From Cyanobacteria bacterium P01_F01_bin.150 (GTDB taxonomy: Bacteria > Cyanobacteriota > Cyanobacteriia > CAKZMO01), in contig JBCCYL010000016.1 in the NCBI GenBank assembly GCA_039189765.1, forward strand, positions 32,860 to 96,859: 64,000 nt of DNA, in the 5' to 3' direction. The notes beneath the pieces were generated by a model. It ran no database searches, was not told the DNA's origin, and saw only the letters and a program-made list of their open reading frames with translations. The translations under genes and the position numbers were made by a program. Positions 9,425-50,152 of this stretch are shown here, piece by piece (positions within the stretch are counted from its first letter, which is position 1; each line of letters opens with the position of its first letter).

Positions 9425-10751
9425 TATTTAATGTCTCTTCTGGTTTATCGTAGGGATGAATTACCATAGATCTGTATGCCCCTGTATCTAAATACGTTTG
9501 GGCTGCAGCTCTCAAATCATGGGGAGTCAACTTACGAATGTGATTAGGATAATTGATTGCTGGCCCTAAATGACCCACCAGCGTTTGATAGTAGCCGTAT
9601 AATCCTGCCCGATTATCTGGTGTTTCATTGCCAAAGACATAACGATTAGCTACCTGGGTTTTAATCCTCTGTAGCTCAGCATCCGTCACCATATGTTCCT
9701 GCAAATCAATGAGATGTTGAAGGATAATTCTTTCTACAACCGCTACGTTTTCATCCGGCAAGTGCACTGAGATATAAAATATTCCTTGGTGAACATAGGT
9801 CATATTGCTAACCGACGCCCCTGAAATTAGACCTTTTTCTTCCCTCAGCTCTTTAATGAGCCGTGCTGTACGACCACCGCTTAGTACTGACGCAAGGACA
9901 TCTAGAGGGTAGGTTTGGCTTAATTGCTCCATGCCAGGCACTCGCCACATCATCATTAGCCGAGCCTGAGATAAAGAGGCGTCGTAGTACTCATGCCGCG
10001 CTACCGTCTGAAAAGATGGCTCTGGGATATGTTGGATAGACGGATATGGAGCATCAAGAAACTTTGTCCTAGCGCTGAATACATCGGCGCGATCGCACCC
10101 ATCAATTACAATATTGATCAAATCATCAACGGGCAAATTACCGACTGCGACCACCGTCATGGCTGATGGACGATACCAGTTCGCATGAAAGTCGCGCATC
10201 TGCTGAGGTGTTAAAGATTCAATTACATCTGTGGTCCCTAAAACAGGACGTCTATAAGGAAGCTGATTGAAGGCGACCTGCATTGAACGTAAAAATGCTC
10301 TCCGACTGGGACTATCATTGGAGCGGCGGATTTCTTCAAGAATGATTGGCCGCTCTCGCTCAAAAGCCTCGTCAGGAATTGCCGGATTGAAAACAATGTC
10401 CAATTGCAAGGGCGCAAGGTCGGCAAAATCCCGTGGTGCAGCAGTAATGTAGTAATGCGTGTACTCTTGACTGGTTGCAGCGTTTGTAATGGCTCCCCGC
10501 TGTTCTACTAACTGTTCAAATTCTCCATTTTTTAATCGCTTAGTTCCTTTGAACATCATATGTTCAAGAAAATGTGCCATTCCATTAAACGGCTCTGATT
10601 CTACGGCTGATCCAACATTTAGCCAGACACTCAGATTCACTGCCTCTACAGGAACCTGTTCTGCAATTATGGTTAAACCATTGGGAAGATGGCGAACGGT
10701 GGGAACATTGATTTGAGGCAAGGAAGCAGATTCAACTACACTAAGTGCCAT
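9411..10751 (-). CDS. M16 (pitrilysin) family zinc peptidase
   Basis: Inverted zincin motif GMAHFLEHMMFKGT, NAATS, RLIKELREEKGL. Confidence 0.92.
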   Translation of the reverse strand: MALSVVESASLPQINVPTVRHLPNGLTIIAEQVPVEAVNLSVWLNVGSAVESEPFNGMAHFLEHMMFKGTKRLKNGEFEQLVEQRGAITNAATSQEYTHYYITAAPRDFADLAPLQLDIVFNPAIPDEAFERERPIILEEIRRSNDSPSRRAFLRSMQVAFNQLPYRRPVLGTTDVIESLTPQQMRDFHANWYRPSAMTVVAVGNLPVDDLINIVIDGCDRADVFSARTKFLDAPYPSIQHIPEPSFQTVARHEYYDASLSQARLMMMWRVPGMEQLSQTYPLDVLASVLSGGRTARLIKELREEKGLISGASVSNMTYVHQGIFYISVHLPDENVAVVERIILQHLIDLQEHMVTDAELQRIKTQVANRYVFGNETPDNRAGLYGYYQTLVGHLGPAINYPNHIRKLTPHDLRAAAQTYLDTGAYRSMVIHPYDKPEETLNTSHQ

Positions 10752-18850: not shown

Positions 18851-21800
18851 ATGTACTATCAAGTTGGCGGTAGCCTTGCAAGCAATGCCCCGTGCTATAT
18901 TCCCCGTTCGTCTGATATGGAGCTGTATCAAGCGCTTCGACGGGGAGATTTTTGCTATGTGCTCAACTCTCGTCAAATGGGCAAATCTTCCTTGATGGTC
19001 AGAACTCGAGCACGGCTTCAGCAAGAGGGCGATCGCTGCACGATTGTCGATATGAGCAACGTTGGTAGCGAAAATATCACTTCTCTTCAGTGGTACAAGG
19101 GTGTAATAAAAGATATATTTCGGGGCTTTAAACTTCGTCGCAGGGTGGATTTTAATGCTTGGTGGGATAAGAAAACTGAGCTTTCTTTGCCTCAACGCTT
19201 TAGCCAGTTTATTCAGGATATTTTGTTGCCCCAGTTCCCTGAAGATAATCTTGTTATTTTTCTTGATGAGATTGACAGTATTTTAAGTTTACCTTTTGCT
19301 GTAGATGATTTTTTTGCTGTGATTCGGTATTGCTATAATCAGCGAGCCATTAATCCTGCTTATCATCGCATTCAGTTTGCCATTGTAGGTGTAGCTACTC
19401 CAGCAGATTTAATTCGCGATCGCCAGCGCACCCCTTTCAATATTGGTACCCCTATTCCTTTGGAGGGATTTACCCTCGACCAATGTAATCCTCTAATTGA
19501 TGGGTTAACCATTCCTCATTGTAATATCTCCAATATTCTTCAGGAAATTCTAAATTGGACAAACGGTCAACCTTTTCTAACTCAGAAACTCTGCCAGTTG
19601 GTCCTATCAGCTAGTCAAGATACAGTCGCTGACAATCTAATCATCCCGCCAGGCCAAGAAGCCCATTGGGTCAAAAATATTGTCAAAGAGAAACTAATGG
19701 CAGATTGGGAATATCAAGACGAACCCGAACACCTGCGCACCATCCGTAATCGACTTTTAAACCGCCCTGACCGGGCTGGACGACTGCTTGGCATCTATCA
19801 GCAGATTCTGACCGTGACCTCCCCTGCTTCTCCCCTCCCCTGCTCCTCAACATCCCTGCTTCCCGGTTCCCCTGTCCGTGCCGATAACAGTCCTGAACAA
19901 ACTGAATTGCTGTTGTCTGGTCTGGTGATAAAACAAAATGGCATCCTAAAGGTCAAAAATCGCCTGTACGCCCTAGTGTTTGATGCTGCATGGGTGGAAG
20001 AACAGTTGAACAATTTGCGGCCCTATTCCCACGTTTTGTCTGCGTGGGTTGAGTCCGGACAAACGGATGAATCACGGCTCCTGCGAGGAAATGCCCTAAA
20101 GGATGCACAACAGTGGGCGCAAGGGAAACAGCTCAGCGATTTGGATCATCAGTTTCTGGCAGCGTCAATGGAAAGCGATCGCCGTCAAGAACAACAGGCA
20201 TTGGAAGCAGCAAGGGTGGAAGCCCTAGAAGCGCAGTTAATGCAAGAACAGAAGACAGCGCAAATTCAACGTCGCTCTTTAAAGATGGTGAGTGGGGCAT
20301 TATGTCTTGTATTGGGGTTGGGGCTGGTTACCTTTTGGCAATATCGTATGGCCCGCACCAGTGAGCTGAATGCTCGTCTCAGTGCCATTAGGGCACTGGC
20401 CTCTTCTGCTGAAGGCAATTTTGATTCCCATCGTCACCTTGATGCCTTACTGCAAGTTATTCAAGCAAAGGAGAGGCTAGAACTCCTACGTCAGGAATCT
20501 CCCGATCTCGCCGATACGGAGCTGCCCAAACACGTTGAATCAGTCCTACGACGTGTGGTTTACGGTGCAGAAGAAGGCAACCGCATCACCACAGAAACTG
20601 GCATACGCGCCGTAGCGATCGCTCCCAATAATCGCTTTATTGCTGCAGCGGGAGCGGATGGCACGATTTATCGTTGGTCCATCAATGGCCAACCCCAACC
20701 TTCAATCCCAGACGCCCACATCACAGAAATTAATACCATCGCCATCAGTCCAGATAGTAAATGGATTGCTTCAGGGTCTGCCGACAAAACGGTCAAGCTT
20801 TGGCATCAAGATAATCGTTTGTATAAACAATTGGGGACTCATCCTGAAGGCATTCGTAGAGTTTTATTTACGGGGGATGGGCGTTTGGTCTCCGTTGGTG
20901 GGGGGCTGATTCGTCTTTGGACGTTTGACGGCGAAATGATTAATGAATGGCATGGACCTGAAGCGATCGCTATAAATACTCAAAATCAAACCCTTGCGGT
21001 ATTTATTCCAGGAGATAGACGAGGGAGCAGAGTAAGGAATAGACCAGACAATAGACAAGGCAATACTTCAAACAGTCGCCCAGACACTGGTCCAGACAAT
21101 AATCCAGAGGATGTTCAGCATCGATTGATTACATACAGCCTAGACAATCTAGAGCACAGTCCTTTGAGCGAAGTGACTATCGAATCACCTCCTGCCCGTA
21201 TGGCGTTTAGTCCTGATGGTAAGCACTTGGTCTTTACCGATCAGAATCACCAGCTAAACATTATGTCAGTAAATAGCGACGGACAGTTACGCCTTGGCCC
21301 AACAGCAGCAGCCCATACGGTCTTAATTCGTAACATTGATATCAGTGCAGATAGCCAATTTATTACTACGGCATCAGCCGATAATACGCTTAAACTATGG
21401 GATATGAATGGAACCCTACTTCGTATATTTGAGGGGCACCAGGCCGTTGTTTGGCATTCCGTCTTTTTTCCAAAGAATGATGCAGATTCCGCAGAGGCAG
21501 ACCAACGTATCCTTTCTGCTGCCGATGATGGCACTTTGAGAATCTGGCAATGGCAGGTTCCCTGGCTGACTCGTCTCTCAACCGAAAGTCGCCGCATTCG
21601 GCGGGTAGCTTTTAGCCCCGATGGGCAGCATATTGCAGCCGCAAGCCAAGAGTTAGCCTTACTCCATGGACTTACTAATAGTGGGGCCTTAAACTCCATT
21701 CCGACAAAAGACGCACTGTTTAGTTTGGCATTTAGTCCTGATGGCCAAGAAATTGCGACAGGGGCTAGAAATGGAACAATGTCCATTTGGCCTATCGCCT

Positions 21801-43535: not shown

Positions 43536-43769
43536 TTGCCCCTAATTTGCCTAGTCCGTCTGCTGATTGTCGGAAACAGTTTCGCTGGCAAAAACACATT
43601 AGGTGCTCAACTCGCCTTGGTGCTTGATGTACCTTTTGTCGAGTTAGATGCCTTAAATTGGGAACCCAATTGGGTTGGATTGAACGATACTGACCCTGAT
43701 GAATTGATGAGGCGTATGCAAAAAGCTACGGAGGGCGATTTCCTTACAGCAAGGCAAAGCCTTTCTTGA
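43536..43769 (+). pseudogene. N-terminal fragment of adenylate-kinase-like / FlaR-type P-loop protein
   Basis: RLLIVGNSFAGKNTL...VPFVELDALNWEPNW; truncated at the HIP1 insertion at 43740. Confidence 0.7.
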
Positions 43770-43786
43770 ATGCCCTTCGGGCTATA
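43740..43786. mobile_element. 47-nt HIP1-inserted double-hairpin element (copy 1)
   Basis: GCGAT[TTCCTTACAGCAAGGCAAAGCCTTTCTTGAATGCCCTTCGGGCTATA]CGC. Confidence 0.8.
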
Positions 43787-43814
43787 CGCACCCTCAATAT
43801 CCAGCAAGAGCGAT

Positions 43815-43861
43815 TTCCTTACAGGAAGGCTTTGCCTTTCTTGAATGCCCTTTGGGCTATA
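43815..43861. mobile_element. 47-nt HIP1-inserted double-hairpin element (copy 2)
   Basis: GCGAT[TTCCTTACAGGAAGGCTTTGCCTTTCTTGAATGCCCTTTGGGCTATA]CGC. Confidence 0.8.
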
Positions 43862-43889
43862 CGCACTCATGATGTTCAACAAACGTTAT

Positions 43890-44241
43890 TTATGTCAACG
43901 CATTAATGGTGATAAGACCGCCTTCTACAGCTTGAATCTGCAAGTCGTAGCCATAAGGGATCAGTTTCAGCTTCATTAACGGGAATATTGCAATATTTTC
44001 CATCCCAGATAACCGTTGCTGCATAAACCTCGAACGTTGCTTCGCTGCCATCCCCTAAGGTTCCACGATCGATGCCTGTCCAAGGCAAATTTAGGAGAGT
44101 AATGATTTCACGTGGCAAGCTCAGAAAACCTGTGTAGCCTGTATCAATGACAGCGTCAATCAGTTGCGTTTGACGATTATCGTTGCCAACAACTAATGGC
44201 ACTGTTGCCTCTCGGTTCAGATTCACAACCCCTTGCATCAT
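43890..44241 (-). pseudogene. Clan AA (retropepsin-like) aspartic protease, frameshifted near C-terminus
   Basis: AVIDTGYTGFLSLP; after ETDPL the family-like tail YGYDLQIQAVEGGLITINALT* is in another frame and the usual LxGM segment is missing. Confidence 0.75.
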
Positions 44242-44513
44242 AAGGGTTCTCTCAAACTTCTTGAGCCAAAACGATGAACGGCTCGATGTCCAACACGGAC
44301 AATCCAAGGCTGGGCATCGGGAAGTCGCTCAAACAATCGATCAGTTGCGGCCAAGATTTCATCAGCAACCTCAAAAACTCCGGTCTCTATATCAATCGCC
44401 ACAATCTTGCCATAATTATCTTCTTCGATTTGGGGGCGCACCTGAGCTTCATAAATCTCATCGCCCCGTCGTGCAAATTCTTCTTTACTGTAGCGGGGTT
44501 GTCGGACCGTCAT
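44238..44513 (-). CDS. Small partner protein of clan AA protease (DUF5678-like)
   Basis: MTVRQPRYSKEEFARRGDEIYE..VRP...GKIVAIDIETG.FEV...PDAQPW..RVG; ATGA overlap with protease gene. Confidence 0.8.
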   Translation of the reverse strand: MTVRQPRYSKEEFARRGDEIYEAQVRPQIEEDNYGKIVAIDIETGVFEVADEILAATDRLFERLPDAQPWIVRVGHRAVHRFGSRSLREPL

Positions 44514-44667
44514 TGGCTTAACCTCGATTTCAGCATTGCCTCTCGATTTTACCCTGAGCTATGAAGATAGGTACGGGTAAAATCAAGTAGGAGCTGGATT
44601 TCTTGTTTCAGCCCAAACTATGAAGTGGCGATCGCACCCTCAACACCTAGCAAGAGCGATCGGCGCA

Positions 44668-44783
44668 ATGTCCCTTTTGTCGAGTTAGATGCCTTAAATT
44701 GGTAACCCAATTGGGTGGGGTTGAACGATACCAATCCTGACGAATTGATGCGGCGTATGCAAAAAGCTACTTAGGGCGATCGC
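44668..44783 (+). pseudogene. Second, stop-containing copy of the P-loop gene fragment (direct repeat of 43627-43739)
   Basis: CCTTTTGTCGAGTTAGATGCCTTAAATTGG...GGCGTATGCAAAAAGCTAC shared; GAA changed to TAA; ends in intact GCGATCGC. Confidence 0.8.
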
Positions 44784-50016: not shown

Positions 50017-50152
50017 CTAGTGGCGCACACGTTTTAAACTGTAGGATGGGTTAGCGACAGCGTAACCCATCGAAGAGATTACTGCTGTTGGGTTTCGTTG
50101 CCTCAACCCAACCTACGCTGTTCAAGCAATTTAAGGCGTGTCGTGCAACTAG
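50017..50152. mobile_element. Inverted GTAG-REP doublet within imperfect TIRs
   Basis: GTAGGATGGGTTAGCGACAGCGTAACCCATC (50041-50071) and GTTGGGTTTCGTTGCCTCAACCCAACCTAC (to 50116); outer CTAGTGGCGCACACGTTTTAAA / TTTAAGGCGTGTCGTGCAACTAG. Confidence 0.7.

Follow-up and report, generated by a model that had tools for sequence, protein, structure and literature searches.

The small dispersed repeats (SDRs) of the Nostocaceae, reportedly described by Elhai and colleagues in 2008, are said to be perhaps the smallest mobile elements, and one of their families, SDR5, reportedly resides exclusively within the octamer GCGATCGC that is termed highly iterated palindrome 1 (HIP1). In this study we analyze a 64,000-nucleotide (nt) stretch of DNA from Cyanobacteria bacterium P01_F01_bin.150 (contig JBCCYL010000016.1; hereafter the window) that contains two copies of a 47-nt sequence, designated E1 and E2, each of which splits a HIP1 octamer at the same point. 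By comparison with described repeats, this element appears to be a longer, composite relative of the SDRs that resides in a lineage other than the Nostocaceae, and its three-hairpin long form appears to be new. A full-text literature search returned only passing citations of the 2008 work, none of which explains how SDRs move, extends them beyond the Nostocaceae or describes a composite long form. According to excerpts of papers citing Elhai et al., SDR5 is 21 nt in length and is located in HIP1, between its nucleotides 3 and 4, in heterocystous strains, and an excerpt of one such paper reports no SDR-like repeat outside the Nostocaceae.

Two further groups of short repeats are relevant to this locus. 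The palindrome-associated transposable elements (PATEs) of the IS200/IS605 family are moved by TnpA, insert at a defined short target without duplicating it, have no terminal inverted repeats and carry hairpins near both ends. The repetitive extragenic palindromic (REP) sequences and REPINs are defined as palindromes that are tagged on one side with GTAG (or CGTC), and GTAG-tagged REPs of this type are reported from cyanobacteria, including cases nested in longer palindromes, by Di Nocera et al. 2013.

Results

Two 47-nt copies split HIP1 octamers at the same point

Positions 43735-43864 of the window, on the forward strand like all window features described below unless noted otherwise, are organized as GCGAT (43735-43739), E1 (43740-43786), CGC (43787-43789), a 20-nt spacer S (43790-43809), GCGAT (43810-43814), E2 (43815-43861) and CGC (43862-43864). 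The element contains no open reading frame (ORF), and its two copies are identical at 42 of 47 positions, with the five differences located at position 11 (C/G), positions 17-19 (AAA/TTT) and position 39 (C/T). A joint 47-nt pattern scanned over the window with up to three mismatches gave exactly two matches versus zero expected from 100 shuffles, and the feature is real. Since deletion of exactly these 47 nt restores GCGATCGC, with no shifted set of nucleotides doing the same, the insertion point GCGAT^CGC is unambiguous and no target base is duplicated or lost. Every detail that we checked of what an earlier note on this DNA had said about the pair, namely its length, its 42/47 identity and its splitting of HIP1 without target duplication, is correct.

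Intact HIP1 is abundant in the window, with 63 octamers observed versus 0.57 expected. No third copy of the element was found in the 64 kb with the 47-nt pattern or with a family model (R1, see below) run with filters off, for which the next best score is 12.3 bits as opposed to 61.4 bits for E1 and 70.4 bits for E2, the copy nearer to the family consensus. A model of the 5' module alone (R2) matched only E2 in the window; a weak R2 match at 488-506 lies inside an ORF and looks like chance.

Empty counterparts of both sites are present about 0.9 kb downstream

The GCGAT to the left of E1 constitutes the final bases, codons G-D, of the remnant of a P-loop kinase gene. The ORF at 43536-43769 that runs into E1 covers the initial 70 codons for a P-loop protein of adenylate-kinase-like type, with a weak match to SKI, and includes a segment of this truncated gene at 43627-43739 that we term frag1. 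Intact relatives of 195-208 amino acids (aa) read ...AT-x-GD-(R/S/A)-WVVAGSY..., and the homology of frag1 to them ends exactly at the G-D-R codons, which are the HIP1 that carries E1. An empty counterpart for the left side of the E1 site is provided by frag2 (44668-44783), a 113-nt paralogue of 43627-43739 that is 90% identical, has two in-frame stops and terminates in intact HIP1 (44776-44783). A second empty counterpart, at 44628-44663, represents the right side of the E1 site together with the left side of the E2 site and consists of intact GCGATCGC (44628-44635), a spacer S' (44636-44655) and GCGATCGG (44656-44663). The block formed by CGC, spacer and GCGAT (43787-43814) thereby recurs at 44633-44660 with 89% identity, and S and S' are identical at 17 of 20 positions. 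The intact octamer and the recurring spacer are the empty states that the earlier note had pointed out, and both are reproduced here. Because the empty sites carry the flanking bases, these bases belong to the target in the window.

The blocks bounded by HIP1 occur in permuted order at the two places, being fragment, HIP1, spacer, HIP1 at 43627-43864 and HIP1, spacer, HIP1-like sequence, fragment, HIP1 at 44628-44783. In both kinase fragments, the homology to intact relatives breaks off precisely at HIP1, which together with the permuted blocks suggests rearrangement through recombination at HIP1 sites. Thus, E1 and E2 are located in rearranged, non-functional DNA in which HIP1 marks the breakpoints.

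The element has three hairpins, and hairpin A covaries

The element is composed of a 22-nt 5' module (X) with two hairpins, a 23-nt module (B) with a third hairpin and a terminal TA. Module X of E1 (43740-43761) comprises hairpin A (43740-43752, with one C/C mismatch) and hairpin 2, GGC-AAA-GCC (43753-43761), while module B (43762-43784) comprises a linker and hairpin 3, GCCC-TTC-GGGC (43772-43782), followed by TA at 43785-43786. The corresponding parts of E2 are hairpin A at 43815-43827, hairpin 2 at 43828-43836 and module B at 43837-43859 with hairpin 3 at 43847-43857. The earlier note had proposed two hairpins, AAGGC-NNN-GCCTT with an AAA or TTT loop and GCCC-TTY-GGGC, and this pair is indeed the minimum-free-energy fold of each copy. 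Its first hairpin is our hairpin 2 lengthened by two A-T pairs, an extension that competes with hairpin A and that is favored by the thermodynamic fold in the window copies. Hairpin A is additional to that pair; it is located at the 5' end with a 5-bp stem and a 3-nt loop, and reads TTCCT-TAC-AGGAA in E2 and other sequences elsewhere.

Covariation was assessed in an alignment of 19 long forms (A1) and in a 14-sequence alignment (A3) in which short forms are mixed with module X of long forms. Hairpin A is the best supported, with both-side changes in four of its five pairs in A1, where 93.8% of cells are paired versus 84.3% in shuffled alignments (0 of 500 shuffles reach the observed value) and where sliding the partners by one column reduces pairing to 43-62%. 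Relative to the Elainellaceae copies, E2 has two hairpin A pairs in which both partners are exchanged. In the 14 A3 sequences, the outer pair of hairpin 2 is never unpaired, being G-C in 9 of them and C-G in the other 5. The predicted hairpins are shown by these alignments to be maintained by selection. The AAA/TTT difference between E1 and E2 is an inversion of the hairpin 2 loop, as the two 13-mers are mutual reverse complements. Complementary loop pairs also occur across copies in hairpin 3 (TTC/GAA and TTT/AAA), and the set as a whole looks like repeated loop inversion.

Relatives are present in several orders of filamentous cyanobacteria

An exact 17-mer from the middle of the element, devoid of HIP1 bases, was scanned over 185,579 species-representative genomes; such a scan passes over diverged copies and imposes GCC on the junction of X and B. 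It returned 97 loci, whereas approximately 70 are expected by chance (a hand estimate for 596 Gb and both strands), with 44 loci being cyanobacterial and 53 not, as judged from record titles. The match extends into the 3' arm of hairpin 3 and a CTAT-like end at 40 of the 44 cyanobacterial loci but at only 1 of the 53 others, and on this basis the cyanobacterial loci constitute a family and the others are chance matches. None of the 97 loci has two matches 75 nt apart, indicating that the source genome of the window is absent from among them.

The cyanobacterial loci were assigned to classes by R1 score and by eye. Thirty-one score at least 50 bits and, with L078 in which the element carries a nested insert, make up 32 long forms. 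Twenty of these reside in a repeat context in four metagenome-assembled genomes (MAGs) of Elainellaceae and 12 reside elsewhere (L003, L049, L078; L048, L044, L061; L018, L028; L073; L043, L045, L004). Module B alone is present at 11 loci (L002, L087, L033, L057, L022, L039, L079, L054, L024, L010, L059), and one locus (L012) is odd. The records are titled Elainellaceae, Leptolyngbya, Symploca and Nostocales MAGs, all of which are filamentous cyanobacteria, from several orders. The junction of X and B is conserved across these orders while hairpin A covaries, for which reason the X+B composite behaves as a propagating unit and not as one-off nesting. The element therefore belongs to a dispersed set, as the earlier note had supposed, with related copies in other genomes in place of the lone local pair that it had considered as the alternative. 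Its suggestion of a longer or composite form likewise stands, given that the 5' and 3' modules are each also found separately.

Searches of reference collections were negative within their scope. PLSDB plasmids gave no match to 43735-43864 by blastn (E up to 10) and none to 32000-56000 by megablast, so that the window is not a known plasmid. The best Rfam overlap with the window element is a miRNA model at 18 bits versus a gathering score of 84, which reflects only the inverted hairpin pair, and no Rfam match at gathering level was found in L043, L045 or L004.

The insertion point is used in REP loops as well as in HIP1

The earlier note regarded the element as HIP1-targeting, and in this respect it requires revision, since the targeting is not strict. 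Long forms elsewhere reside mostly (20 of 32) in the loop of a REP doublet at GGGTT^CGT, and a split between GCGAT and CGC, which the note had expected of other copies, is present and clean at just two (L045, 47 nt; L004, 45 nt) and not at the other 30. The window has such a REP doublet at 50040-50117, a REPIN-like doublet of GTAG-tagged stem-loops with GTAG...CTAC ends, which is the kind of repeat reported by Di Nocera et al. 2013. Over 34-69 nt it shows 83-94% similarity to portions of a multi-copy repeat in the Elainellaceae MAGs, and its second loop is an empty site (GGGTTT|CGTT, between 50095 and 50096). In the Elainellaceae version, a longer palindromic element that has TAAGTAGG...CCTACTTA ends encloses the doublet. 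When the loop position is aligned (alignment A2), it is empty in the window, occupied by a 24-nt short form in L081 and occupied in L055, L067 and L075 by a long form of 47-48 nt. Because hairpin A of the short form is unrelated in sequence to that of the long form, the insertions of the two at this loop were independent. By eye, spacer S and the right arm of the REP doublet have CCTCAAC...ACCTA in common.

Left flanks vary among copies (GCGAT, GGGTT(A/T), GGGTA and GCAAT), with the base before the element being mostly T or A, and the right flank begins with CG in most long and short forms and with CA in a few. HIP1 is the only context in which sites with unrelated flanks recur, namely twice in the window, in L045 and in Nostoc punctiforme. 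Our reading of these flanks is that the preferred target may be a T^CG that lies within a palindrome or in the loop of a hairpin, and that HIP1 would be the commonest sequence of this sort.

The right flank of L045 is shared by L043, in which the left flank is decayed. A paralogous sequence around 8618 in L043 was considered as an empty site and rejected, since it has GCGAT but not the next 4 nt and so is not clean. The approximately 600 nt to the right of the element in L043 and L045 are present in three copies in L043 (8618-9125, 9982-10603 and 11381-11965); by eye this repeat resembles the C-terminal part of a cysteinyl-tRNA synthetase, and the element is present in one copy only. As a separate observation, some copies of the Elainellaceae repeat (L009, L042, L050, L056, L083, L085, L092 and L095) have a second insert, of 26 nt and on the opposite strand, approximately 70 nt to the left of the long form. 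It consists of GCCC-GAA-GGGC, which is the same third hairpin, followed by TATAC and adjoins a HIP1-like GCGATAGCG; other copies from the same MAG are without it.

Modules X and B also occur alone

Module X alone, consisting of hairpin A and hairpin 2 followed by AA or TA and then mostly by CG, is present in L003, L049, L061 (two copies), L078 and L081. In addition, 200 kb of the Nostoc punctiforme plasmid pNPUN01, with 102 HIP1 sites, contains a 21-nt insert twice in GCGAT^CGC and a third time in GCAAT^CGAT, the third copy differing by 4 substitutions, a compensatory change in a stem among them. This repeat aligns in architecture with module X, while the long-form model R1 found nothing in the same 200 kb at E up to 1. 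Its length, its position between nucleotides 3 and 4 of HIP1 and its heterocystous host fit SDR5, with which we would tentatively equate it. A length scan of pNPUN01 for GCGAT-N(15-60)-CGC was too noisy to define families, and just the 21-nt insert recurred cleanly. Another HIP1-linked insert in pNPUN01 (L098-L101, 0-200 kb) has the form GCGATCGC, 19-22 nt rich in GGCGGGCGG-like sequence, ATCGC, and is present at least three times.

Module B alone, approximately 24 nt with one hairpin, is located inside transposase genes at its 11 loci. For example, in L033 (9990-10016) Pfam DUF4096 is matched by the frame upstream of B over profile positions 1-44 and by the downstream frame over 47-75. Every B-only insert causes a +2 frame shift, and the gap corresponds to the P-W of a conserved motif. 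Comparison with the protein families indicates that 24 nt take the place of a single base in a TGG codon (followed by C), so that 23 nt are gained. The inserts are at two different tryptophans of IS5-type genes, which are of the DUF4096 kind, and, from a reading of the translations, at one tryptophan of the gene in L010, which we take to be of IS630 type from its motifs. The GCC to the left of B was imposed by the search pattern and is consequently no evidence of a target. L002 and L087 represent the same interrupted insertion sequence, which one Stenomitos assembly carries both on its chromosome and on a plasmid. Nesting was observed in L078, where approximately 120 nt of small hairpin modules (about 10018-10140) are located in the hairpin 3 loop of the long form.

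Discussion

Comparison with SDR5 and other small repeats

The likeness to SDR5 that the earlier note had drawn is a partial one. Both repeats insert at the same phosphodiester of HIP1, since a position between nucleotides 3 and 4, as given in the excerpts on SDR5, is GCG^ATCGC and reads GCGAT^CGC on the other strand. In both, insertion occurs without target duplication, compensatory changes keep the hairpins in the family of the window element as they reportedly do in SDR5, and 22-nt module X shares its architecture with the 21-nt pNPUN01 repeat, SDR5 itself being compared here by description only. In contrast, the window element is 47 nt and not the 21 nt given in those excerpts, as it has the extra third-hairpin module; its family is not exclusive to HIP1; and it is not confined to the Nostocaceae, having a Leptolyngbyaceae/Elainellaceae-like host in the window and relatives beyond the Nostocaceae. 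Other SDR families reportedly resemble it in having modules of 21-27 nt, in nesting (as in L078) and in being embedded in small inverted-repeat elements, but differ in that X+B has a junction conserved across orders.

REP and REPIN sequences, which are mobilized by REP-associated tyrosine transposases (RAYTs), are also short, non-autonomous hairpin repeats that have a conserved unpaired tag beside the stem and are thought to move as single-stranded DNA (ssDNA), and the loop of a GTAG-tagged REP doublet is the commonest home of our element elsewhere. The element nevertheless lacks GTAG or CGTC at either end, the nearest sequence being an ATAG beside hairpin 3 on the other strand, and has three different hairpins, not one palindrome or an inverted doublet. 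Like PATEs it leaves its target unduplicated, lacks terminal inverted repeats and has hairpins near both ends, and it perhaps also resembles them in using a defined short target, but its left flank is variable, its hairpin A is 0-2 nt from the element end and leaves no room for guide sequences of the IS608 type, and its 47 nt are far below known minimal ends. It also differs from miniature inverted-repeat transposable elements (MITEs) in that neither of its ends (TTCCTT... and ...GCTATA) is an inverted repeat of the other and in that removal restores HIP1 without a duplicated base.

An SDR-type element and the evidence against it

We consider it somewhat probable that E1 and E2 are copies of an SDR-type, non-coding, non-autonomous composite micro-element that inserts at HIP1. 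The arrangement of filled and empty sites suggests that the element either entered HIP1 at GCGAT^CGC, or could precisely leave it there, without duplication or loss of the target. Several observations weigh against this reading. There are just two copies in 64 kb, which adjoin each other, and none of the 97 loci with relatives comes from the source genome. The two cleanly split HIP1 sites elsewhere are few, and 28 of the 32 long forms are inside larger repeats, 20 of them in a REP/MITE context and the other 8 in three groups whose members share flanks, so that passive amplification is possible. Hairpins 2 (GGC-NNN-GCC) and 3 (GCCC-NNN-GGGC) are largely fixed by the search pattern, for which reason their invariance in A1 is uninformative, and the folding energy is unremarkable by itself (z -1.4 to -1.9). 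The mismatch types, read in the E orientation, comprise 2 G/T versus 6 A/C, of which the mis-registered row of L048 contributes one A/C, and are too few to assign a strand to an RNA. Finally, no enzyme, intermediate or recent polymorphism was observed.

Tandem duplication and copying by recombination

One alternative is that there was a single ancestral insertion and that a local 75-bp tandem duplication of the unit GCGAT-E-CGC-spacer then made E2 as a copy of E1. The two copies adjoin, they are the sole copies in the window, and the 75-nt period is 83% identical over 75 nt. The high-identity part nonetheless spans only about 60 nt of this period, the remainder being identical at 8 of 15 to 11 of 20 positions, and the 20 nt that follow E2 match the spacer that follows E1 at 11 of 20 positions. 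A recent duplication is disfavored because this sequence is less similar to the spacer than E2 is to E1 (42/47); the spacer is indeed far nearer to its empty paralogue (17/20). A duplication that predates the paralogue split is disfavored because the paralogous spacer has an element-free HIP1 or HIP1-like site on both sides, so that two later precise excisions would be needed. The level of 11/20 is above chance (P about 0.005 versus random 20-mers of the window, and reached by 3 of the 124 20-mers that follow intact HIP1), which keeps an old duplication possible and counts against independent insertion. Even a true duplication would leave the family in other genomes unexplained, and simple local tandem duplication was rejected as a class for the element on account of the unequal divergence over the 75-nt period together with these outside copies. 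We therefore regard the duplication as unlikely; two insertions, or one insertion copied to the neighboring HIP1, is the simpler account.

We regard as equally unlikely a history without transposition in which the element was copied by homologous recombination, gene conversion or replication template switching from repeat-borne donors, by means of flank similarity and pauses at hairpins. The residence of most long forms inside larger repeats favors such copying, and so does the right flank of E1 (CGCACC(C)TCAA), which resembles that of REP-borne copies to the extent that blastn extends 11 nt past the element. Recombination with a REP-borne copy could thus deliver the element without transposition, a further point against the SDR-type reading. 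The loop inversions AAA/TTT, TTC/GAA and TTT/AAA are of a kind that is attributed to intra-hairpin template switching, and may have arisen in that way. The B-only inserts are also unclean, having one target base replaced for a net +23 nt. Against copying, the left flank of E1 is ordinary kinase coding sequence that is dissimilar to the repeats, the HIP1-split sites of the window, L045 and N. punctiforme have unrelated flanks, and the HIP1 junctions are exact to the base. The weak likeness of the two right flanks in the window to each other, and of both to the REP-loop flank, may reflect either target preference or recombination with a repeat-borne donor.

It is very improbable that the element is an immobile functional signal under selection (a structured RNA or DNA such as a regulatory hairpin cluster or a protein-binding site) with the HIP1 halves as part of its motif: compensatory changes do preserve hairpins A and 2, the core is conserved across orders and L043 and L045 have the element at one homologous place, but no Rfam family matches the element, the window copies lie in a dead gene remnant among rearranged fragments, other copies break transposase reading frames or occupy loops of other repeats, and the empty paralogous sites show that the HIP1 halves belong to the target and not to the motif.

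How an SDR-type element might move

For an SDR-type element, we favor an insertion at T^CG that is guided by structure and proceeds through a single-stranded intermediate, while giving no single enzymology more than a low probability. The element would be mobilized in trans by an enzyme encoded elsewhere, as none is encoded nearby: no transposase, reverse transcriptase or HUH match was found near it among 46 of the 52 window ORFs of at least 130 aa, 12 of which were scanned with NCBIfam only and the remaining six of which, starting at 21247, 35229, 41036, 41216, 42033 and 47651, lie outside the scan. The moving form would be a folded single strand, either ssDNA acted on by an enzyme of HUH/RAYT type or RNA copied back by a reverse transcriptase, and the target would be recognized as T^CG in a sequence able to extrude or open. 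We lean slightly toward the ssDNA route, in which hairpins of ssDNA would be the substrate of an HUH-type enzyme (RAYT or IS200/IS605 TnpA), an activity that would suit residence in REP loops. HUH-type enzymes carry out site-specific insertion without duplication. Against this route, the element is without a GTAG tag, and its ends leave guide sequences no space. Elhai and colleagues are said to have proposed an RNA intermediate copied back at a nick in HIP1, and on such an RNA route the constant right-hand CG could serve as priming microhomology.

Host and genomic context

The aspartyl-tRNA synthetase (AspS) encoded in the window has 88-90% identity with MAG proteins labeled Leptolyngbyaceae or 'Cyanothece sp. 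SIO2G6', compared with about 83% for proteins of Elainellaceae, indicating that the host is a non-heterocystous filamentous cyanobacterium and not a member of the Nostocaceae. The rest of the window is ordinary chromosome, with sigC, nadB/nadA, smpB, a phycocyanin operon and aspS. Between the rearranged blocks, 43903-44513 of the minus strand has two overlapping small ORFs of 134 aa (with a D-T-G motif) and 91 aa, for neither of which was a Pfam match found at E up to 0.01.

Implications

Should the element turn out to travel only passively with larger repeats, it would be no more than a curiosity of annotation. This locus provides a clean comparison of filled and empty sites in one window, adds a three-hairpin long form with a junction conserved across orders, and presents one insertion point, T^CG, that is used in HIP1 as well as in REP loops. 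The modular picture of X, B and X+B can be modeled and counted genome-wide, and two old questions become more testable, namely what purpose HIP1 has and which enzyme moves elements that are too small to have recognizable ends. A broader proposal, which we put forward as quite unlikely, is that HIP1 and the loops of REP palindromes are landing pads of one structure-guided, site-specific trans system that cuts at T^CG, operates in several cyanobacterial orders and shuffles modules X, B and X+B, with B landing on transposase tryptophan codons (TGG then C) of IS5 and IS630 elements, replacing one base and breaking the frame. Such micro-elements may then be parasites or silencers of larger mobile elements, and this recombination chemistry would be connected with how abundant HIP1 is.

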